Source: Planctomycetales bacterium
GTDB taxonomy: Bacteria > Planctomycetota > Planctomycetia > Gemmatales > Gemmataceae
Length of the DNA: 24,217 nt
Reading direction: 5' to 3'
Assembly (NCBI GenBank): GCA_020054355.1
Contig: JAGVLI010000732.1
Span: 1-24,217 of the forward strand
Of this stretch, positions 3,371 through 19,979 are shown one piece after another. Positions within the stretch are counted from its first letter, which is position 1. Every line of letters begins with the position of its first letter. The notes beneath the pieces were generated by a model that did no database searches, had not been told where the DNA came from, and worked only from the letters and a program-made list of their open reading frames with translations. The position numbers and the translations under genes were made by a program.

Positions 3371-4693
3371 ATGACAGAGCAGCTCCAACAGCCGAAGCGA
3401 TTTCGTTCTTCATTCATCATGCTCGCCCTGGGCTTGGGCCTGGGTGCCGGTGCGACGACCCTGCACTTCAGCGGGCGGCTGGCACCGGTTTACCACGCCC
3501 TGGGATGGCACTCGCTGATGCCGATGAGCGAGCCGCGGGAAAATGCCAGCCCGTCCTCGCCGGGCGGACACGCCGGCCACGGCGGCATGAGCATGCCCCA
3601 AGGAACGAGCACGGGGGAACCATCCCAGATTTCCGGCTATTCCATTGTGGCCATCACCCCGGAACGCCAGCAGCTCGTCGGCGTGCGCACGGGCCGGGTC
3701 GAGCGCGACAAGCTCCTCATGTCGATCCGGGCGGTCGGCATCATCGAGCCAGACCAGACCCGGCTGGCCCGCATCCAGACGCGGATCAGCGGCTGGGTCA
3801 CGAAGGTGTATGCCAACTTCGTCGGGCAGACCGTCAAGAAGGGCGACCCTCTCCTGGAGATCTACAGCCCGGACCTGCTCGCCACTCAGGAAGAATATCT
3901 GATCGCCATGGACGGCGGACAGAAGTCCCTGGCGGACTCGGCCCGACGCCGGCTGGAATTGTGGGGAGTTCCCCAGGACGAAATCAAGGAGCTGGTCAAG
4001 ACCAAGACGGCCCGGGAAACGCTCATGTTGCGCGCTCCGATCAACGGCCGGGTCTTGGAGCGTAACGCGCTGGAGGGAACGCGCGTCGAGCCGACCACGG
4101 AGCTGTACCGCATCGCCGACCTCTCCGTCGTCTGGCTGCAGGCGAAGATCTACGAATACGAACTGCCGCACGTCGAGATCGGACAGCCGGTTCGCATCGC
4201 CCTTCTCTCCCACCCGGAAACCGAGTTCAAGAGCAAGGTGGCCTTCGTCGAACCCGTGTTCCAGGAGACGACGCGGACCGTGAAAGTGCGCATCGTGATC
4301 GACAATCCCAAAGATGAGTTCAAGCCGGGCATGTATGCGAACCTCCGCATCGAGCACGACATGGGTGAAGGGCTTCTGGTCCCGGAGTCGGCCCTGCTGC
4401 GGACGGGGGAACGCAACCTGGCCTTCCGCGTTTTGCCGGAAGGGCGTTTTGAGCCCGTGGAGGTCAAGGTGGGCGCGCGCTTCGGCGAGCGTTTCGAGGT
4501 GCTGGCGGGGCTCGCCGCCGGCGACCGGATCGTTACGTCGGCCAACTTCTTGATCGACGCAGAGTCCCGGCTGAAGTCCGCGACCTCGGGGATGGGCGGA
4601 CACCAGCACGGCTCAGGGGGTGCCGCAGCGCCCAAGTCGGACGGCACCCCGGCGAAAGCCCCTGGCGCCGGCGACAAGCAGCACAAACATTAA
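3371..4693 (+). CDS. cusB: CusB-like RND efflux periplasmic adaptor subunit
   Basis: N-terminal hydrophobic anchor; His/Met patch GGHAGHGGMSM; adaptor motifs ISGWVTKVY, VKKGDPLLEIYSPDL, RIADLSVVWL, FKPGMYA, GDRIVTSANFLIDAES; His-rich tail; directly upstream of cusA. Confidence 0.92.
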   Translation: MTEQLQQPKRFRSSFIMLALGLGLGAGATTLHFSGRLAPVYHALGWHSLMPMSEPRENASPSSPGGHAGHGGMSMPQGTSTGEPSQISGYSIVAITPERQQLVGVRTGRVERDKLLMSIRAVGIIEPDQTRLARIQTRISGWVTKVYANFVGQTVKKGDPLLEIYSPDLLATQEEYLIAMDGGQKSLADSARRRLELWGVPQDEIKELVKTKTARETLMLRAPINGRVLERNALEGTRVEPTTELYRIADLSVVWLQAKIYEYELPHVEIGQPVRIALLSHPETEFKSKVAFVEPVFQETTRTVKVRIVIDNPKDEFKPGMYANLRIEHDMGEGLLVPESALLRTGERNLAFRVLPEGRFEPVEVKVGARFGERFEVLAGLAAGDRIVTSANFLIDAESRLKSATSGMGGHQHGSGGAAAPKSDGTPAKAPGAGDKQHKH

Positions 4694-4706
4694 TGGGGTG
4701 CCGATC

Positions 4707-7700
4707 ATGATCGAAAAAATCATCAAGTTCTCCGCGAAGAACAAGTTCCTCGTCCTGATCTTCACCGTGGTGGCCGTGGTCGGAGCTATCCACTGGATGC
4801 GCGAAACCCCCCTGGACGCCATCCCGGACCTGTCGGACACCCAGGTCATCATCTATTCCCGCTGGGACCGCAGCCCGGACATCATCGAGGACCAGGTGAC
4901 CTACCCCATCGTGACGGCGATGCTGGGGGCCCCCAAGATCAAGGCGATTCGCGGCTTCTCCGATTTCGGTTTTTCCTACGTCTACGTCATCTTCCAGGAC
5001 GGCACCGACATCTACTGGGCGCGGAGCCGGACCATCGAGTATCTCTCCAAGATCTTGCCGCGGTTGCCGGAAGGAGTGCGGACCGAGCTCGGCCCAGACG
5101 CCACCAGCGTCGGCTGGGTCTTTCAGTACAGCCTGGTCGATAAGAGCGGTCAGAACGATCTCGCCCAGTTGCGCACATTTCAGGATTGGTATCTGCGCTA
5201 CCAGCTTCAGTCCGTCCCAGGAGTGGCGGAAGTGGCGTCGATCGGCGGGTTCCAGAAGCAGTACCAGGTCAACATCAACCCCAACGCCTTGAACGCCTAC
5301 AACGTGACCCTGCCGACCGTCGTCCAGGCGATCCGGGAGGGCAACAACGACGTCGGCGGCCGCGTCGTCGAGTTCAGCGGCGCCGAGTACATGGTGCGCG
5401 GCCGCGGCTATGTCAAGAGCGTTGCCGACGTCGAAAACATCGTGGTCGGCCGCGACGCGCAGGGCACGCCGATCCTGATCAAGAACCTGGGCCACGTCGC
5501 GCTCGGACCGGACATCCGCCGCGGGATCGCGGACCTGGACGGAGAGGGCGACACCGTTGGCGGCATTGTGGTCATGCGCGCCGGTGAGAATGCTCTCAAC
5601 GTCATCGAACGGGTCAAGGACAAGCTGGAGGACCTGAAGCCCTCCATGCCCAAGGGGGTCGAGGTTGTCACGACCTACGACCGTTCCGTGCTGATCGACC
5701 GCTCCATTGATACCCTCAAGGAAGAACTGCTGGTCGAGATCCTCATCGTCAGTGCGGTCATCCTCATCTTCCTGTGGCACATCCCGTCGGCGATCATCCC
5801 CATCTTGACGATCCCCGTTTCCGTGGTGCTGGCCTTCATCCCCATGTACTTCATGGGGCTGACCACGAACATCATGTCGATCACGGGGATCGCCATCTCC
5901 ATCGGCGTGCTGGTGGACGGCGCGATCGTCGAGGTGGAGAACGCCTATAAACGCCTGGAACAATGGATCGCCGGCGGCCGGCAAGGCGATTTCCACGACG
6001 TGCGTCTGCGCGCCCTCAAGGAGGTCGGGCCATCGGTCTTCTTCTCCCTGCTCGTCATCGCGGTGGCCTTCATGCCGGTGTTCACGCTCGTGGACCAGGA
6101 GGGCCGGCTGTTCAAGCCGCTGGCGTTCACCAAGAACCTGGCCATGGCCATCGCCGCGCTGCTCGCCATCACCCTCGACCCCGCGATGCGGATGATGTTC
6201 ACGCGCATGGACTATGTCCACTTCCGGCCCAGGTGGCTGGCCTGGATGGTCAACACGGCGACGGTGGGCCGCTACTATCCCGAGGAACAGCATCCCATCA
6301 GCAAGCGTCTGTTTCGCCTTTACGAGCCCGCGTGCAACTTCGTGCTGCGCCACAAGGCATTGATCATCATCGGCGCCTTCGCCCTCGTGCTGCTGACGAT
6401 CCCGGCCTACTCGCAGCTCGGCTCCGAGTTCATGCCCCCACTCGACGAGGGGACGCTCCTCTACATGCCGACGACCTTACCCGGGCTTTCGGTCACCGAG
6501 GCGCAAACCCTGCTGGGGACGATGGACCGGGTGCTGAAAATGTTTCCCGAGGTGGAGCGCGTGTTTGGCAAGGCCGGGCGAGCGGAGACCTCCACGGACC
6601 CGGCGCCGTTCTCCATGATGGAAATCACCATCGTGCTCAAGCCACACGAGCAGTGGCGCCGGAAGGAACGCTGGTATTCCGGCTGGCCCGGCTGGTTGCA
6701 AGTTCCCCTGCGGCACATCTGGCCCGACCGGTTGAGCACCGAGGAGCTGGTCGCGGAGATGGACCGCGCCATGCAGTTCCCCGGCGTCGTGAACGCCTGG
6801 ACCATGCCCATCAAGGCGCGCATCGACATGCTCAGCACCGGCGTCCGGACGCCGGTTGGAATCAAAATCCTTGGCGCGGACCTCAACGAGATCGAACGGC
6901 TCGGGGCCCACGTCGAGATGATCCTTAACCAGGTCCCCGGTACGCGGAGCATCTACGCCGAACGGACGGGGGGCGGGTATTTCATCGATTTCGTGCTCAA
7001 GCGGGAGCAGCTCGCCCGCTACGGTTTGACGGTCAAGGAAGCCGAGATGGTGGTCACGTCCGCCGTCGGTGGCGAAGCGATCACGACCACGGTGGAAGGG
7101 CGCGAGCGCTACACGATCAACGTCCGTTACGCCCGCGAGCTGCGCGACGACCTCGACAAGCTGCGCCGCGTGCTCGTCCCCACCTCGGCCGGCGCCCACG
7201 TGCCCCTCGCCGAGCTAGCCGACATCAAGCTCGTGACCGGTCCGGCGATGATCCGGGACGAGAACGGCCTGCTCTCCGGCTATGTTTACGTCGATCTGGC
7301 GGGGCGGGACGTGGGCGGCTACGTGGAGGAAGCCAAGGAGTTGGTCGCGAAGGAATTGCAGCTCCCGACCGGCTACACCCTCACCTGGAGCGGGCAGTAC
7401 GAGAACATGATTCGCGTGCGCGAGCGCTTGAAGCTCGTCGTGCCGATCACGATCTTTCTGATCTTCCTTCTGCTGTACATGAACACCGGCTCGGCGGTGA
7501 AGGCCGGCATCGTCATGCTTGCAGTCCCGTTTTCGCTGATCGGCGCCGTCTGGTTCCTGTGGTTGCTCGGCTACAACATTTCGATTGCCGTGTGGGTCGG
7601 CATGATCGCCCTGATGGGCCTGGACGCGGAAACCGGGGTCTTCATGCTGCTGTTCCTCGACCTGTCCTATTACGACGCAGTCCGCAAAGGCAAGATGAAG

Positions 7701-7997
7701 ACCTACGAGGACCTCAAAGAAGCCATCATCCACGGAGCTGTGAAACGCATCCGGCCGAAGATGATGACGGTGGCCGCGGCGATGATGGGCCTGTTGCCGA
7801 TCATGTGGTCGCTGGGCACCGGCGCCGACATGATGAAGCGGATCGCGGCGCCCATGATCGGCGGCCTGGTCACCAGTTTCATTCTCGAGCTCCTGGTCTA
7901 TCCGCCGATCTACGCCATCTGGAAATGGCGCTACGAGATGAAGTACGGCACGGTGGATGTCAGCCAGTTGCCGATCCCGGAGTTGCGGGCGCATTGA
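4707..7997 (+). CDS. cusA: CusA/SilA-family Cu(I)/Ag(I) efflux RND transporter (1096 aa)
   Basis: MIEKII start, DAIPDLSDTQVII and LGPDATSVGWV. Methionines lie in the contexts of the E. coli CusA triad (LLYMP, PFSMME, RIDMLSTG). Proton-relay residues lie in LVDGAIV, LDAETG and RIRPKMMT. Many TM segments. Confidence 0.96.
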   Translation: MIEKIIKFSAKNKFLVLIFTVVAVVGAIHWMRETPLDAIPDLSDTQVIIYSRWDRSPDIIEDQVTYPIVTAMLGAPKIKAIRGFSDFGFSYVYVIFQDGTDIYWARSRTIEYLSKILPRLPEGVRTELGPDATSVGWVFQYSLVDKSGQNDLAQLRTFQDWYLRYQLQSVPGVAEVASIGGFQKQYQVNINPNALNAYNVTLPTVVQAIREGNNDVGGRVVEFSGAEYMVRGRGYVKSVADVENIVVGRDAQGTPILIKNLGHVALGPDIRRGIADLDGEGDTVGGIVVMRAGENALNVIERVKDKLEDLKPSMPKGVEVVTTYDRSVLIDRSIDTLKEELLVEILIVSAVILIFLWHIPSAIIPILTIPVSVVLAFIPMYFMGLTTNIMSITGIAISIGVLVDGAIVEVENAYKRLEQWIAGGRQGDFHDVRLRALKEVGPSVFFSLLVIAVAFMPVFTLVDQEGRLFKPLAFTKNLAMAIAALLAITLDPAMRMMFTRMDYVHFRPRWLAWMVNTATVGRYYPEEQHPISKRLFRLYEPACNFVLRHKALIIIGAFALVLLTIPAYSQLGSEFMPPLDEGTLLYMPTTLPGLSVTEAQTLLGTMDRVLKMFPEVERVFGKAGRAETSTDPAPFSMMEITIVLKPHEQWRRKERWYSGWPGWLQVPLRHIWPDRLSTEELVAEMDRAMQFPGVVNAWTMPIKARIDMLSTGVRTPVGIKILGADLNEIERLGAHVEMILNQVPGTRSIYAERTGGGYFIDFVLKREQLARYGLTVKEAEMVVTSAVGGEAITTTVEGRERYTINVRYARELRDDLDKLRRVLVPTSAGAHVPLAELADIKLVTGPAMIRDENGLLSGYVYVDLAGRDVGGYVEEAKELVAKELQLPTGYTLTWSGQYENMIRVRERLKLVVPITIFLIFLLLYMNTGSAVKAGIVMLAVPFSLIGAVWFLWLLGYNISIAVWVGMIALMGLDAETGVFMLLFLDLSYYDAVRKGKMKTYEDLKEAIIHGAVKRIRPKMMTVAAAMMGLLPIMWSLGTGADMMKRIAAPMIGGLVTSFILELLVYPPIYAIWKWRYEMKYGTVDVSQLPIPELRAH

Positions 7998-12841: not shown

Positions 12842-12888
12842 GTGTGCCGCTTGGTGTTACCGGTGCTGCAAGTGAGGAGGACGGAGTC

Positions 12889-13410
12889 ATGCTGACGATT
12901 CGAACCATCGCTGCCGGTGTCATGCTGGCTCCTGCTTTCGGCCTGGCATTCGTGCTCGGCTGCCACAACACGCCGGCGGACACCTCGGATTACGCCCGGG
13001 GCCCGACTCCGCTGCGGACCCCTTCTCCTGCCCGGGAGGGTGAGGAAGGCTGTTGTTACGAATCGTCCCTGACCGGCGGACACATCTTCGAAATGTACTG
13101 CGGCGCCTGTCACAACGCGCGCAGTCTGGCGGAACGTCCCTTTTCGAATTACCAGAACGTTGCTGCCCACATGCGCGTCCGCGCCAACCTCACGGGAGAA
13201 GAATACGCCAAGCTGATGGCCTGGCTGCGCCGCTGGCACGACGTGCCGCCGCCGAATCCGCCGCTCGAGCCGTCGCCCAAGCGATTCATTTTCGCACAGC
13301 CGATCCCGGAACTTCGGGACCAGGCTGCCCCCGCGCCCGCACCCGCTCCGAAAGCGGGGGAGGAAGAAGAGTCTGAAGACCCCCAGCCCCGCGAGTCGGC
13401 CAAACCCTGA
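12889..13410 (+). CDS. Putative lipoprotein monoheme cytochrome c
   Basis: Strong RBS (GAGGAGG...GGAG); signal ending in lipobox-like VLG-C; CGACH at 13099-13113; candidate distal Met in AHMR; Pro/Glu-rich tail. Confidence 0.82.
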   Translation: MLTIRTIAAGVMLAPAFGLAFVLGCHNTPADTSDYARGPTPLRTPSPAREGEEGCCYESSLTGGHIFEMYCGACHNARSLAERPFSNYQNVAAHMRVRANLTGEEYAKLMAWLRRWHDVPPPNPPLEPSPKRFIFAQPIPELRDQAAPAPAPAPKAGEEEESEDPQPRESAKP

Positions 13411-13676: not shown

Positions 13677-14324
13677 ATGTACCGGCACCGATTCACAAAT
13701 GCTCGAGTTCTGGCTGTCGCGGCGGCAGCTTTGCTGTTTGCCGCGGGTCCCGCAACTGCCCAGCATGGCCGCGGGCACGTCGCGGTACATCATGGTAGTC
13801 CCCACGTCGCCGTCCATCATGCCAGTCCTCACGTGACTGTGCATCATGCCGGCTACTACCGGCACCCCACGTACTATTACCCCACCGCGCGATATTCCAC
13901 CTGGCGCCCCAGTGTGTACTATCACTACTATTACCCGCGGTACTGGGGTTACTACCCGTCGTTCTTCAACTACGGGAGCTATCCGTATGCGGAGTATGGG
14001 CCGGGGTACAATCCTTACGGTTCGCCGCCGGGTGGTTACCAGGCGTTCTACCCTCCGACAGCTCAGCCTGAGCTGACTGCCCAGGTGGCGGTCCGTGTCC
14101 CGGCCAATGCCGAGGTTTGGTTCAATGGAGCGGCAGCAGCTCAGAAAGGCCCGCTGCGCGAGCTTGTATCGCCGCCGCTGACCCCTGGGCTGGAATTCAA
14201 CTATGAAATCCGTGCCCGCTGGCTGGAAAACGGACGGGAGGTGACCAAGGTGCGGCAGGTCACCGTCCGGGCGGGTGATCGGCTGACAGTCGATCTAACC
14301 TCCGCCACAGCCAAGAAAGGCTGA
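13677..14324 (+). CDS. Exported TIGR03000-domain (planctomycete) protein with His repeats and a Tyr-rich linker
   Basis: GAAAGGAGG RBS and a signal peptide ending ATA-Q. C-terminal VRVPANAEVWFNG...SPPLTPG...YEIRARW...VTVRAG is the pattern recognised for this domain. Confidence 0.85.
   Translation: MYRHRFTNARVLAVAAAALLFAAGPATAQHGRGHVAVHHGSPHVAVHHASPHVTVHHAGYYRHPTYYYPTARYSTWRPSVYYHYYYPRYWGYYPSFFNYGSYPYAEYGPGYNPYGSPPGGYQAFYPPTAQPELTAQVAVRVPANAEVWFNGAAAAQKGPLRELVSPPLTPGLEFNYEIRARWLENGREVTKVRQVTVRAGDRLTVDLTSATAKKG
13776..13853 (+). repeat. Three in-frame 27-bp tandem repeats encoding HV(A/T)VHH(G/A)SP
   Basis: CACGTCGCGGTACATCATGGTAGTCCC / CACGTCGCCGTCCATCATGCCAGTCCT / CACGTGACTGTGCATCATGCCGGC. 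Confidence 0.85.
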
Positions 14325-14414: not shown

Positions 14415-16640
14415 TCAGGGTTTGCGGGGTGGGGCAGACAACTCCTGCAATTGCCTCTGCAATTCACGCCACTGGTCTTGCAATTCTCGGAAACGCTTCT
14501 CAAAATCGCCGGGAGGCGGTTCACTGGTTGCTGGCCGGAATGGGCCGAATGCCCGCACGTAGGCAACCAAGTCTTGTGCCTGTTCCTCGCCCACGCGCCC
14601 GCGGAAGGCAGGCATGAGCGTTCCCTTGCCGTCGAGGATACTCACCGCCAGCTGGGGATTACCGACTCCTTCCTGCCAGGTACGACTGGTGAAATCCTGG
14701 ATCGTCGGCATGCTCGCTTTCAGTTCCAGCCCACGCCCATCCGCGCCGTGACAGATCAGACAATACTGCCGGTACAAGCTGGCGGCCACGCGCATCCGCG
14801 CCGCGGTTTCCGGCGAAGGCCCAGAAGGCGTCTTCGGGCCGGGGATAATCGCCGGCTGTTCCGGGGCGGGCGGCACGACCGGAGGTTGCGGCTCCAACTT
14901 GACAACCTGCTTGCCCTCCTGGAATGCCCGCACGTAAGCGACCATTTTCTCGGCGTCGGCCTTGCCCATCTTGTCCTTCATCGGCAGCATGAACTTGCCT
15001 TTGCCTTCCAAGATGGAGTGCAGCAATTCCTCATCTTTCCGAGAGGCTTGCCACTTGGGATCGGTGAAATCGGACATGTCGGGCATCGCCTTGCGTACAG
15101 TGTTGCCGCGTCCGTCGGCGTCGTGGCAGGCCAGGCAGTAGGCCCGGTAGATTTGTACCGGAGACATCTGGGCCGTGACCGGCCCGGGCGGCGGCGGGAC
15201 AGGTTTAGGCGGCAGGGCTTCACCGCTGCCGACCGCAAAGGCGCGAGTGTAGATCGACAGCGCCAGGATCTGTCGCTCGCCGAGCTTGTTCCGATAGGCC
15301 GGCATCAACGGCTCGTTGCCGTCTTGGATGCGGTGCGTGATCTCCAGGTCGGTCTGGGACATCTGCCAGGTCAGGCTGGTGAAATCAGGGATCGTCGGCA
15401 TGCCTTGCCGAATCTGGCTGCCGGAGCCGTCCACGCCGTGGCAGGCCGCACAGTTCGCGTTGTACAACTTGGCCACGTCGGCCCGCTGCAGAAGACCGGC
15501 TGGTTCGGTCGGCACCGGCGGCTGGACCACGGCGATGGCCGGCTCCCTCATCCGCACATCCGTGGCGATCGCGTAGATGGTCAAGCCGATCAGCCCGATG
15601 GTTCCTCCGCTGAGCAAGCCCAGGGCCAACGGCCGTTTGCGGGGTTTCAGTTGCGGGTTGCGGTCCAGAAACGGCCAGAATAATAGCAGCAGGAAAAACA
15701 GGGTCGGCAGGACAAACGTGCCGACGATCTCGTAGGGGCCTTCGAAGTACCTCAGGAGCTGGAAGAGGAACATGAAGTACCATTCCGGCCGGGCCTCGTA
15801 AGGCTGGGAAGGGTCCGCTTGGGCTTCCAGGGGGGCCGGCTGATAATAGCACCAAACGCCTAGGCCCAGGAGGAACACCAGGGCAAACACGCCGTCTTTC
15901 CAGGCTTGCCTGGGCCAGAACGGTTCTTGCTTGGCTTCCAGCTGAGCGCCGGATTCCCACCAGGAAGGCGTGATGCCGTGCAGTCGGAACAGGTAGAGGT
16001 GGACCACGATCAGAAAGATGATCAGTCCCGGCAGGATGAATGCGTGAATGGTGAAGAAGCGGGTCAGGGTCAGGTTGCCCATCTGCGGCCCACCCTGGAG
16101 CAGACTCCGGATGCTATCGCCGATGACCGGCGTGGTGCTGGCAATACCCAGGCCGACCTTGGTTGCCCAGTATGCTTTCTGGTCCCAGGGGAGAAGGTAG
16201 CCTGTGAAGGACAGGCCCAACACGCAGAACAGCAGCAAGACCCCCACCATCCAGGTGAATTCACGCGGTTTCTTGTACGCTCCCCAGACGAACACCTGGA
16301 TCAGGTGAAACAGCAAGAGGATGACCATGGCGCTGGAGCCCCAGTGGTGCAGCGCCCGGATAAAACCGCCAAGGGGCACTTCTTCCTGGATGTACTTGAC
16401 GCTCGGCCAAGCGGTCTCGACCGAGGGGGCGTAGCACGTGGTCAGGAGAATGCCGGTGATGACCTGCAGCGTGAAGGCGAAAAGGAGCAAGCTGCCGAAA
16501 GCCGCCGTCCAGCGCGAGCCGCCCGGCAGCGGTTCGAGCAGAAGCAGCTGCTTCAGCCGGCTCCAGCCCGTTCGCGATTCCCAGAATCCGGGCTGAGGCT
16601 TTGGTTCGACCGCAGGTTGTTGTTCGTGCTCGTTGTCCAT
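14415..16640 (-). CDS. qcrB: Cytochrome b (b6 + subunit IV-like, unsplit) of a Rieske/cytb complex, fused to three C-terminal cytochrome c domains
   Basis: Heme b His pairs in RALHHWG...FHLIQVF and IHAFILP...VVHLYL; GYLLPWDQKAYWA; Qo motif RPEWYF. CxxCH at 15438-15452, 15123-15137 and 14748-14762. Confidence 0.93.
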   Translation of the reverse strand: MDNEHEQQPAVEPKPQPGFWESRTGWSRLKQLLLLEPLPGGSRWTAAFGSLLLFAFTLQVITGILLTTCYAPSVETAWPSVKYIQEEVPLGGFIRALHHWGSSAMVILLLFHLIQVFVWGAYKKPREFTWMVGVLLLFCVLGLSFTGYLLPWDQKAYWATKVGLGIASTTPVIGDSIRSLLQGGPQMGNLTLTRFFTIHAFILPGLIIFLIVVHLYLFRLHGITPSWWESGAQLEAKQEPFWPRQAWKDGVFALVFLLGLGVWCYYQPAPLEAQADPSQPYEARPEWYFMFLFQLLRYFEGPYEIVGTFVLPTLFFLLLLFWPFLDRNPQLKPRKRPLALGLLSGGTIGLIGLTIYAIATDVRMREPAIAVVQPPVPTEPAGLLQRADVAKLYNANCAACHGVDGSGSQIRQGMPTIPDFTSLTWQMSQTDLEITHRIQDGNEPLMPAYRNKLGERQILALSIYTRAFAVGSGEALPPKPVPPPPGPVTAQMSPVQIYRAYCLACHDADGRGNTVRKAMPDMSDFTDPKWQASRKDEELLHSILEGKGKFMLPMKDKMGKADAEKMVAYVRAFQEGKQVVKLEPQPPVVPPAPEQPAIIPGPKTPSGPSPETAARMRVAASLYRQYCLICHGADGRGLELKASMPTIQDFTSRTWQEGVGNPQLAVSILDGKGTLMPAFRGRVGEEQAQDLVAYVRAFGPFRPATSEPPPGDFEKRFRELQDQWRELQRQLQELSAPPRKP

Positions 16641-16659: not shown

Positions 16660-17187
16660 TCAAGTGCTCACCGGAACTCGCTGGGCCACGCCGATCTTGA
16701 ATTCTTGCCAGCGCACCAGCAAGCGGCCCGCACGGACCTGGAACTCGATAGGGTCCATGGAACGCGGAGGCGGGCCCGCGATGTAGCGGCCCTCGGCGTC
16801 GAAGACCCCGCCGTGGCAAGGCGACACAAACTGGGAGCGATCCGGATGCCAGTTGATGGGACAGCCCAGGTGCGGGCAGATCGGCGACAAGACAGTGACT
16901 TCCTGGTCGGACGCTGCTTTGCGCCGGACCCACAGGGAATGGCGGAACTTGGCCTTTTTCCAGCCGTCCTGGTGAACCATCTCCAGGGCCAGCAGCCGCC
17001 ATTCGCCGATCGGCAGATCGGCGAGTCGTCCCATGTCGATGAAGCCCGCCTCGGCGCCTTCGCGTTTCCATAGGGGGGCCAGCAGATACCCGATCGCGGG
17101 GATGGCCACCAGCAGGCTGAGTCCCGCGAGCAAGATTTCCGTACAGTACGTCATGAAACGCCTGCGGTGGTCGTTCGCTTCGGACAT
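16660..17187 (-). CDS. qcrA: Rieske [2Fe-2S] subunit of a Rieske/cytb complex, with a variant box II
   Basis: Tat-like RRRFM followed by a TM helix; box I CPHLGC; box II SPCHGGVF; GPPPRSMD tail. It ends 19 nt before the cytochrome b start. Confidence 0.9.
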   Translation of the reverse strand: MSEANDHRRRFMTYCTEILLAGLSLLVAIPAIGYLLAPLWKREGAEAGFIDMGRLADLPIGEWRLLALEMVHQDGWKKAKFRHSLWVRRKAASDQEVTVLSPICPHLGCPINWHPDRSQFVSPCHGGVFDAEGRYIAGPPPRSMDPIEFQVRAGRLLVRWQEFKIGVAQRVPVST

Positions 17188-17516: not shown

Positions 17517-17873
17517 ATGCCGACTCAAGTGGAACTCGCCGAGTACCTGGAAGAGATTCGCAGCCAAGTCTGCAGCCGTTGTGTCGAACGGCCGCCGGGC
17601 GGCCCACCCTGCGCGCCTTTGGGCAAGCAGTGCGGCATCGAGTTGCACTTGCCCGCGCTGATCGATTCGATCCACCAGGTGAAGAGCGAATACTGGATCG
17701 AGCCGTACCTGGAGCACAACCGCGAGCAAGTCTGCACCACGTGTCCGCATTTGCACAGCAGCATCTGCCCCTGCCCGATGGACTACCTGGCCGTGCTGCT
17801 GGTGCAAGCCGTTGAAACCGTGGATGAGCGCCGCACGGCAAGGCAGCTCGCGGCTGAAGAGGGCAAACCGTGA
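17517..17873 (+). CDS. Small Cys-rich hypothetical protein with an internal duplication (putative metal or Fe-S binding)
   Basis: GGAGAGGG RBS; repeats YLEEIRSQVCSRC and YLEHNREQVCTTC; 8 Cys in 118 aa; no signal peptide. Confidence 0.8.
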   Translation: MPTQVELAEYLEEIRSQVCSRCVERPPGGPPCAPLGKQCGIELHLPALIDSIHQVKSEYWIEPYLEHNREQVCTTCPHLHSSICPCPMDYLAVLLVQAVETVDERRTARQLAAEEGKP

Positions 17874-18213: not shown

Positions 18214-19773
18214 TCAGGGAAGGCTGTTCCGCGGCACCAAGCCGAGAGGTCCGCCGACCGAGCGTTCCAAGGCGGCCAGCCGGCGGAAGTAGTCGGCAAT
18301 GGCTTCATAGTAACGGTCTTCCAGGCTGACGACATTTCTTTGGGCCTCAATCAGGCTCAGGAACGGAACCCGTCCCGTCACATAAGCCGCCTGCGCGGCT
18401 CTGACGTTATTTTGCGCCGCGGGCAGGATTTCTTCTTCATACAGCCGGATGACTCGCTGACTTTCCCGGACCTGGGCAAATGCCTGCTGGACCTCGTAGT
18501 TTGATTGATCGGTGAGCCTGGCCAGTTCGGCGCGACGCTGGGTTATCCGGGCCTGGGCCTCGCTGACGGCTCCGTAACGTCGTGCACGCCGGACCGGCAG
18601 ATTCACTCGCACAGCGAGCTGGGTGCGCAGGTCTTTTTCCTCTGGCTGCCAGAAGGCGTCGTAGGCCGCCAGCACGTCAAAGTCCGGGTAGAATTCTCGG
18701 TTGGCCAGGCCAAGCGCGGCTTCCTCGGCGGCGATCCGGTTCGCCAGCGCTTGCAAATCGGGACGCCGCGACAAGGCAAGCGCACGCAATTGTTCCGCTT
18801 CGGGCAAGGGATCCGGCTGAAAGCGAGATGCGACCGTCAGCCCCGCGGCGAACAGGCCGCTGACGGGTGGGGGCAGGAAGAGGAGAATGCCCACGCTCGA
18901 TTGCCAGGACGCGGGCCTGGGCGCCGGCGGCAAGGAGAGATCGGGCGGCAGGTGCATCAGGGTATTGAGGCGGGCGACCGCGACCTGGCGGAGTCGGTCC
19001 AGAAGCACACCGCGTTCGCGCTGGCGGCCAATCTCCACGTCGGCCTGGAAAACATCTTGCTGGACTGCCTGGCCGGCGCGGTAGCGCGCCTCGGCATTCT
19101 GACGGAACTCACGCAACAGCCGGAGGCCTTTCTCGTTGACCGCCGTGGCCCGGTGGACCAGATAGTAATCGTAAAAGGCGCTCTTGGCCGCCTCGATCAG
19201 TTGCAGGGCCGCGTCATCCACCTCATTACCGGCAGCGCTTGCCTCCGCCAGGGCATTCTCCCCCCGCAACCGCAGTTTGCCGGGGAACGGGTATCTCTGC
19301 GATACTTCCAGTCGGTAAGCGAAGTCCACTTGATCGGAGCCAATGGAGGCTGGGCCAAAGGTGGCGCCGAAGGTCGGGTCGTCCAACGAAGTCACCTGCG
19401 GGTAGCGGGCCGAGGCCGCTTGCCAGGCCGCGATCATCTGGGGCAACGTGGGATTTCGGGCAAGCACTTGCTGGACCAACGCCTCCAGGGAAAGTTCGCT
19501 CATTCCCTCAAAGGGAGGAGCATTCCCGAGGTCATCGGTCGCGCATGTTGATGTCGGAGTGGGAGCCGGCAGGGTGGGGATCGGCGATGGAGGAGCCTCA
19601 AGAGCAGGAACGGCCTCAGTCGCCGGTGATGGCGCGACAAGTTTTGCGTTTTGTGCAGCCGGTGGCACCTGCGCGGTTGGCGACAGAAGCGGCAGCGAAT
19701 CACATCCCGCCTGGAGGGCCAGGATCAATGAAGCGCAATACCGTATCGCTCGGTTAGACCTTGCTCGTAGCAT
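18214..19773 (-). CDS. TolC/CusC/CzcC-family outer-membrane efflux lipoprotein
   Basis: The ATG at 19773 gives a basic-hydrophobic signal with lipobox LQAG-C (alternative start 19836). OEP repeats: LVQQVLARNPTL, QRYPFPGKLRLRG, AKSAFYDYYL, ALSRRPDL, EFYPDF, YVTGRVPFLSLIEAQR. Confidence 0.9.
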   Translation of the reverse strand: MLRARSNRAIRYCASLILALQAGCDSLPLLSPTAQVPPAAQNAKLVAPSPATEAVPALEAPPSPIPTLPAPTPTSTCATDDLGNAPPFEGMSELSLEALVQQVLARNPTLPQMIAAWQAASARYPQVTSLDDPTFGATFGPASIGSDQVDFAYRLEVSQRYPFPGKLRLRGENALAEASAAGNEVDDAALQLIEAAKSAFYDYYLVHRATAVNEKGLRLLREFRQNAEARYRAGQAVQQDVFQADVEIGRQRERGVLLDRLRQVAVARLNTLMHLPPDLSLPPAPRPASWQSSVGILLFLPPPVSGLFAAGLTVASRFQPDPLPEAEQLRALALSRRPDLQALANRIAAEEAALGLANREFYPDFDVLAAYDAFWQPEEKDLRTQLAVRVNLPVRRARRYGAVSEAQARITQRRAELARLTDQSNYEVQQAFAQVRESQRVIRLYEEEILPAAQNNVRAAQAAYVTGRVPFLSLIEAQRNVVSLEDRYYEAIADYFRRLAALERSVGGPLGLVPRNSLP

Positions 19774-19949
19774 TGTGCAGACCCCCATCGTCGCCGTCCC
19801 TGGCTTGCGAGACGTGCCGGTCTCGGCAGTTTGCATGTTTCCCTGAACGAAACCGGAAAAACTAGCGAGACGTTCCTTGGTCATTCTTATCGGCCTGGAA
19901 TATTCGGCGTCATCAGCAAACCTTGCCCCGCCGCAACATTGGCGATGGG

Positions 19950-19979
19950 TTGACTCCGCGCAGGTCGCGGGCATACAAT
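19950..19979 (+). promoter_or_regulatory. Sigma70-type promoter candidate for the distal Cys/His-rich gene run
   Basis: TTGACT-N18-TACAAT, each hexamer one mismatch from consensus, 38 nt upstream of the ATG at 20018. Confidence 0.55.

Follow-up and report, generated by a model that had tools for sequence, protein, structure and literature searches.

The window, i.e., the whole stretch of 24,217 nucleotides that was analyzed, harbors on its minus strand a gene for a Rieske iron-sulfur subunit (positions 16660–17187), which was identified by its open reading frame, its translation and a match to the Pfam family PF00355 (30.9 bits at a cut-off of 20.3) and codes for 175 amino acids plus a stop codon. 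A twin-arginine motif, R8-R9-R10-F11 (17155–17166, minus strand), was assigned from the alignment and precedes the N-terminal membrane helix; R8, R9, and F11 are invariant in the clade alignment. The AF2 model has a mean pLDDT of 84.7, with values of 87–96 across the cluster loops, and places a helix at residues 2–40 as N-terminal anchor. The top Foldseek matches of this model are without exception Rieske subunits from Rieske/cytochrome b complexes, namely those of Kuenenia, Chlorobaculum, Thermus and the b6f complex.

Two cluster-binding loops can be recognized. Box I reads C104-P-H106-L-G-C109 (16861–16878, minus strand), as assigned by translation and alignment, and comprises the Cys ligand, the His ligand and the disulfide Cys; it is invariant in the same clade alignment. 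Box II reads F120-V-S122-P-C124-H125-G-G-V-F129 (16801–16830, minus strand) and was assigned by translation and by a gapless alignment to the CPCHGSQY segment of 2zt9_D. Rieske subunits of the bc1/b6f-type carry a [2Fe-2S] cluster held by two His and two Cys, with an EPR signal at g about 1.90. The protein shares with them the PF00355 domain, the fold and the Box I motif C-x-H-x-G-C, and furthermore the Tat signal with a membrane anchor and an adjoining cytochrome b gene. Box II is where it departs, since S122-P-C124-H125 stands in place of C-x-C-H.

The partner gene begins 19 nt downstream of the Rieske gene (14415–16640, minus strand). It is intact and codes for a protein of 741 amino acids, a cytochrome b that has the PEWY Qo motif and continues into three fused c-type haem domains, as seen from its open reading frame and from Pfam (Cytochrome_B with 163 bits, Cytochrom_B_C and three Cytochrome_CBB3/Cytochrom_C stretches). 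By these features, the Rieske and cytochrome b-c pair is to be counted among the “PEWY-cyt c” complexes of Kao and Hunte (2014; PMC4122944).

The pair is embedded in a metal-efflux neighborhood. At 3371–7997 on the plus strand and at 18214–19974 on the minus strand lie genes of the CusB-like (HlyD_D23, 249 bits), CusA/AcrB-like (728 bits) and TolC-like (OEP) types, and these flanking efflux genes appear unrelated to the respiratory pair. Immediately downstream of the cytochrome b-c gene region, two open reading frames are present on the plus strand, one of 188 amino acids with one CGACH haem motif (12844–13410) and one of 215 amino acids rich in His and Tyr (13677–14324), neither of which gave a Pfam match at E ≤ 0.001. 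A Cys-rich open reading frame of 118 amino acids (17517–17873, plus strand) is divergent from the Rieske gene.

The HMMER alignment with the Nostoc b6f Rieske chain 2zt9_D (CTHLGC...CPCHGSQY) is gapless and sets Ser122 opposite the first Cys of CPCH, which in the accepted assignment is the second ligand of the Cys-side iron, with C109 and C124 as the disulfide pair. The codon is TCG at 16822–16824 (minus strand), as obtained by a pattern match and from the coordinate table. A preliminary description of this DNA had reported Ser at a canonical cluster-ligand Cys, and this is confirmed to the base. It had also assigned the first Cys of box II as ligand, the second as disulfide partner and the G-F pair as a mark of low potential, which agrees with the PDB alignment and with the literature (PMC4122944). 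In the two orthologs compared at the DNA level (L006 and L007) the corresponding codon is TGC; relative to these, TCG indeed lies two changes from a Cys codon and equals a swap of GC to CG, as had been remarked. TCG accounts for 24% of the Ser codons in the window and is thus an ordinary Ser codon. Since it is two steps away from TGC, it is unlike a single-base miscall and suggests a Ser state of some duration.

Low-potential Rieske proteins of the menaquinol type have a midpoint potential near +150 mV. Their signature consists of G at +2 and F at +4 after CxCH, replacing S and Y, respectively (PMC4122944). The protein of the window reads HGGVF and hence carries the G-F pair of the menaquinol type. 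However, although the G-G-x-F tail that had been noticed is real, its G-F signature is common to nearly all of 119 close homologs and so nothing special to this protein; judged from the aligned sequences, the signature describes the whole clade and not the single member. The Val at +6 (GGVF) was considered as a second-site mark of the Ser type and was rejected: it is typical of the Ser clade, but it is also the commonest residue in Cys sequences of the GG type and occurs in 16/119 members of the window's own clade.

Among 5.8 billion protein clusters searched, 441 hits were obtained; the best 119 of them, with 55–71% identity, were taken as close homologs. All of these 119 best hits carry CPCH. 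Likewise, Cys was found in 79/79 metagenome relatives, which had been collected with two clade patterns, one of them biased toward Cys. No other true Rieske protein with SPCHGGxF was found in a 400-genome sample of the phylum scanned with TCN and AGY DNA patterns, the AGY pattern giving 0 hits. With the TCN pattern, three additional hits were obtained in a single genus (g195), and these were discarded. All three species (L051–L053) share an identical 24-mer, TCACCATGCCATGGAGGCCGTTTC, which in L051 is not read in the SPCHGGRF frame and lies outside any Rieske gene. This case illustrates that motif scans at the DNA level require frame checks. The exact Rieske sequence of the window occurs once in public data, in a cluster of one member on one contig. 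As no close relative with Ser was found, selection for Ser in the lineage of the window is not demonstrated. The preliminary description had proposed that its case would fall if all close homologs kept Cys and the protein bound no cluster; the first half of this corresponds to what was found.

The source genome is a fragmented MAG of 1115 contigs with a completeness of 69.6%. On another of its contigs (C521; L003, 1–1667) a canonical Rieske gene is present, which reads CTHLGC...CPCHGSGF with the S-F signature of medium potential and has a separate cytochrome b gene behind it. At least two Rieske/cytochrome b complexes are therefore encoded by this organism.

Beyond this clade the picture is different. 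The suggestion that proteins with CxHLGC...SPCH might form a conserved clade does not hold for the window's own relatives, which all keep Cys, but SPCH is conserved in two distant clades. The interpretation offered in the preliminary description is supported in part. Among the matches listed (150 of roughly 6000 representatives at 50% identity), at least six more distant proteins with SPCH were present, two of which were followed up. With P0170 as query, from a clade of the Dehalococcoidia/Rokubacteria/Acidobacteria type, Ser was found in 65/120 hits at 40–83% identity, mostly as SPCHGGVF. With P0178 as query, from a clade of the Anaerolineales type, SPCH[DNH]G[HR]F was found in 117/120 hits. 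Such proteins were met in many independent assemblies, with 43 members in one 90% cluster and 23 contigs bearing one and the same protein; the sequences of the SPCH clades are therefore no sequencing errors. When species-representative genomes were scanned with a pattern, 25 SPCH loci were found in MAGs of at least seven phyla, with the labels Chloroflexota/Dehalococcoidia, Rokubacteria/Methylomirabilales, Acidobacteriota, Deltaproteobacteria, Actinomycetota, Gemmatimonadota, and Cytophagia. In 21/25 of these loci a cytochrome b lies directly downstream and, where readable, it contains PEWY and CxxCH and is of the same type as the partner in the window. Literature searches found no description or biochemical characterization of a natural Ser-type Rieske protein.

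One argument for function, that organisms of the Ser type would lack a canonical Rieske protein, had to be abandoned, as canonical CPCH paralogs are present in 5/5 SPCH-bearing MAGs checked. Some of these genomes are instructive in their own right. MAG G443 encodes two similar paralogs, L055 with CTHLGCIVSW...FFSPCHGGVF and L060 with CTHLGCIISW...FQCPCHGGIF, which represent a natural Ser/Cys pair. A Dehalococcoidia MAG of about 1.4 Mb (G442) carries three Ser-type Rieske genes (L054, L059, and L064) and one canonical CPCH gene. Within the Anaerolineales-type clade (P0387–P0505) the Gly of box I is often replaced, giving CTHLAC in 36/120 and CTHLSC in 18/120 sequences, and the second Cys is always kept. 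In another Rieske homolog, P0261, both ligand His are apparently replaced by Asp (CPDMSC...CPCDAS) and three Cys are kept; this might represent a further non-canonical cluster site or, alternatively, a dead domain.

The Ser of the window arose independently of the SPCH clades. In a PMSF IQ-TREE analysis of 66 sequences, the Ser-bearing proteins are split over three parts of the tree, and the window falls into a clade (support value 95) with 17 Cys-bearing sequences, where its terminal branch of 0.13 compares with 0.15 for its sister. Constraining all Ser rows to one clade costs 391 lnL (p-AU = 1.6e-5), by which a single origin is rejected. A FastTree analysis of 280 sequences gave at least 11 changes between Cys and Ser, 6 of them forced by well-supported branches; across the trees, at least 4–6 such changes are forced in this way. 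The codons agree with an independent origin, since the distant clades use AGC, AGT or TCC, counted as one step from TGC, and the window uses TCG, counted as two.

Taken together, the reading we lean toward, with a confidence somewhat short of even, is a real and independent replacement of a ligand Cys by Ser in a functional low-potential Rieske subunit, in which the Ser would itself ligate the iron. Here, the change would have occurred at the iron-ligand position of box II in a menaquinol-type subunit that is still under constraint and that would act within a two-gene Rieske/cytochrome b-c complex. The [2Fe-2S] cluster would most likely still be assembled, with one iron bound by Cys104 and Ser122 and the second by His106 and His125, and the C109–C124 disulfide that joins both loops would be retained. 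On the Cys-side iron, which is not reducible, the Oγ of Ser122 would stand in for the thiolate of Cys. In a Rieske centre this iron remains ferric upon reduction, so that a hard oxygen ligand is chemically reasonable there, and such O-ligation would be expected to shift the potential only modestly. Since Ser is the normal residue in two large and unrelated groups of uncultured bacteria, Ser-for-Cys at this site is probably a working natural variant that is uncharacterized in the literature.

The main rival, rather unlikely but to be taken seriously, is an impaired or dead subunit, in which the substitution is real and destroys or destabilizes the cluster as the first decay step of a redundant paralog. 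This would fit to the Ser being a singleton in an otherwise Cys-invariant clade and to the canonical Rieske/cytochrome b pair on contig C521, which could cover for the loss, so that a recent inactivating change could be buffered. In addition, engineered bc1 mutants with Cys-to-Ser at the ligands lose the cluster; Graham and Trumpower in 1991 and Davidson et al. in 1992 reportedly observed that changing ligand or disulfide Cys to Ser in the Rieske proteins of the yeast and Rhodobacter bc1 complexes abolished it. The protein also departs in 5/65 cases from columns that are at least 90% conserved, which lies in the upper tail of its clade (median 2, maximum 7). The other four departures, however, are conservative (M/L, I/L, Q/E, and E/D).

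Against a dead subunit stands the evolutionary rate of the gene. Maximum-likelihood branch lengths were estimated on a shared topology for 13 orthologous Rieske and cytochrome b gene pairs, and the ratio of the terminal branches is 1.97 for the window compared with 2.01 tree-wide (range 1.85–3.7); thus no acceleration relative to cytochrome b is present. The terminal branch of 0.13 in the Rieske tree is not long either. An about 2.2-fold acceleration of the Rieske gene relative to its cytochrome b, as estimated from three-taxon distances, was removed by the analysis of the 13 pairs. The reading frame contains no stops and no frameshifts, and apart from Ser122 all invariant residues are preserved; the Pro loop, the Tat motif and the two His are intact, and so is the partner cytochrome b-c gene. 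The normal branch ratio, the few departures and the intact reading frames together give no sign of a long-term relaxed constraint. Moreover, the replacement is exactly the residue found in two natural clades, where a random hit might give several others, and the two-step codon speaks for a Ser that has persisted for some time. Simple decay, which the preliminary description had named, is furthermore opposed as a default reading by the conservation of SPCH in two distant clades of genuine Rieske/cytochrome b operons, which argues for a tolerated ligand replacement.

A functional protein with a ligand switch, which the preliminary description had proposed beside Ser ligation and a dead subunit, is improbable. 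Here, Cys124 would ligate the iron, the disulfide would be lost, C109 would become a free thiol and Ser122 would move to the second sphere. Arithmetically this is possible, as three Cys and two His remain to supply a 2Cys/2His set, and engineered [2Fe-2S] ferredoxins are known to swap a ligand for a free Cys nearby. Geometrically it appears strained, since Cys124 adjoins His125, the ligand of the other iron, which would be tighter than the native i, i+3 spacing. A switch would also release both position 122 and C109, yet neither shows such a release. A total of 505 homologs were collected, and in the 500 that could be parsed, the parse itself requiring the second Cys of box II, the ligand position holds Cys in 314 and Ser in 186, never Ala, Gly, Thr or any other residue. 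All of these (500/500; 186/186 of the Ser-type and 314/314 of the Cys-type) retain the second Cys of box I, and the second Cys of box II is invariant in an alignment of 42 SPCH sequences. A position restricted to Cys or Ser, the two residues whose γ-heteroatom can ligate, with both disulfide Cys kept, is the pattern that Ser-O ligation with an intact disulfide would predict; as far as conservation can tell, the patterns favor Ser ligation over the switch.

An assembly or consensus artefact, in which the true codon is TGC and the contig carries a GC-to-CG error, is very improbable: TCG is TGC with its last two bases swapped, the MAG is of low quality with no second copy of the sequence for a cross-check, and findings picked for their oddity are enriched for errors, but two adjacent wrong bases would be needed that happen to yield the one alternative residue nature uses here, the changes between Cys and Ser counted above among a few hundred sequences are far commoner than a double miscall at a given codon, and the remaining contig reads as intact genes.

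Returning to the replacement of the ligand Cys by an iron-ligating Ser, the window would then not stand alone. It is conceivable, though we hold it tentatively and at less than an even chance, that a natural class of Cys1-Ser1-His2 Rieske proteins, with a single oxygen ligand on the iron locked in the ferric state, exists with several independent origins in low-potential complexes and that the window is one further case, at the tip of a planctomycete clade that otherwise has Cys throughout. If true, this class would be the norm in complexes of the Anaerolineales type and common in Dehalococcoidia, Rokubacteria, and Acidobacteria. The rule of a strictly conserved CxCH would then be wrong, and an exchange of Cys and Ser would be a natural tuner of the potential or the stability of the cluster.

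For the window alone the stakes are smaller, since it represents one tip lineage with a putative function. The broader finding concerns the Ser-type Rieske subunits as such, which occur commonly in uncultured Chloroflexota as well as in several further phyla. The four cluster ligands of Rieske proteins are treated as invariant, yet Ser stands at one of them in hundreds of natural Rieske/cytochrome b operons, and the swap arose several times, the window included. The SPCH operons point to a Rieske centre that is oxygen-ligated or otherwise re-wired, which is of consequence for how complexes that oxidize quinol set the potential of the cluster, its proton coupling and its stability against oxidation. 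Such an oxygen-ligated centre of natural origin is a concrete hypothesis that can be tested cheaply, and soluble domains of Rieske proteins are readily expressed.

Compared with known systems, the protein of the window is most readily set beside the low-potential “PEWY-cyt c” Rieske proteins (PMC4122944). It resembles these in the Tat motif, the single membrane helix, the fold and box I CxHxGC, as well as in the second Cys and the His of box II, the G-F pair and the GPPPR loop, and its gene likewise immediately precedes that of a PEWY cytochrome b to which class I cytochrome c domains are fused. It is unlike them in the Ser at the first Cys of CxCH, a motif that has been termed “strictly conserved” in Rieske/cytochrome b complexes (PMC4122944).

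Among solved structures, the Rieske proteins 2zt9_D, 1vf5_D, 1rfs, 1nyk, 9rk4, 9rk3, and 1rie are the best matches in sequence and fold, and the cluster loops align without gaps. We take 2zt9_D, 1vf5_D, and 1rfs to be PetC of cyanobacterial or plant b6f complexes, 1nyk to be the Thermus and 1rie the bovine protein, and 9rk4 and 9rk3 to be kuste4569 and kustd1480 of Kuenenia. In the alignment, CPCH is seen in 2zt9_D and in two other top b6f chains, where the window has Ser at the first Cys. In kuste4569 and kustd1480 the cluster is held by the canonical two Cys and two His (PMC12954380).

A chemical precedent is offered by engineered [2Fe-2S] ferredoxins and rubredoxins with Cys-to-Ser changes, where, as proposed here, a serine oxygen takes over from one of the thiolate ligands. 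[2Fe-2S] clusters with a serinate ligand have been described in engineered proteins and can be recognized by their Raman signature, with bands at 332–356 and 289–302 cm−1, and in rubredoxin a Cys-to-Ser change of a ligand lowers the potential by 100–200 mV (PMC6006211). These are laboratory mutants of all-Cys sites, whereas the change in the window is natural and affects a 2His/2Cys Rieske site.

The closest parallels are the SPCH clades themselves. The window belongs to neither of them, as it nests among Cys-bearing sequences of the planctomycete type, and it differs from them in its box I (CPHLGC instead of CTHLGC) and in its Ser codon. Nevertheless, it has in common with them the Ser-for-Cys replacement, the presence of both disulfide Cys, a partner cytochrome b with PEWY and a c-type haem domain, and a canonical paralog in the genome. 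With the clade of the Dehalococcoidia/Rokubacteria/Acidobacteria type it even shares the whole octapeptide SPCHGGVF, which in the Anaerolineales-type clade reads SPCHDGHF.
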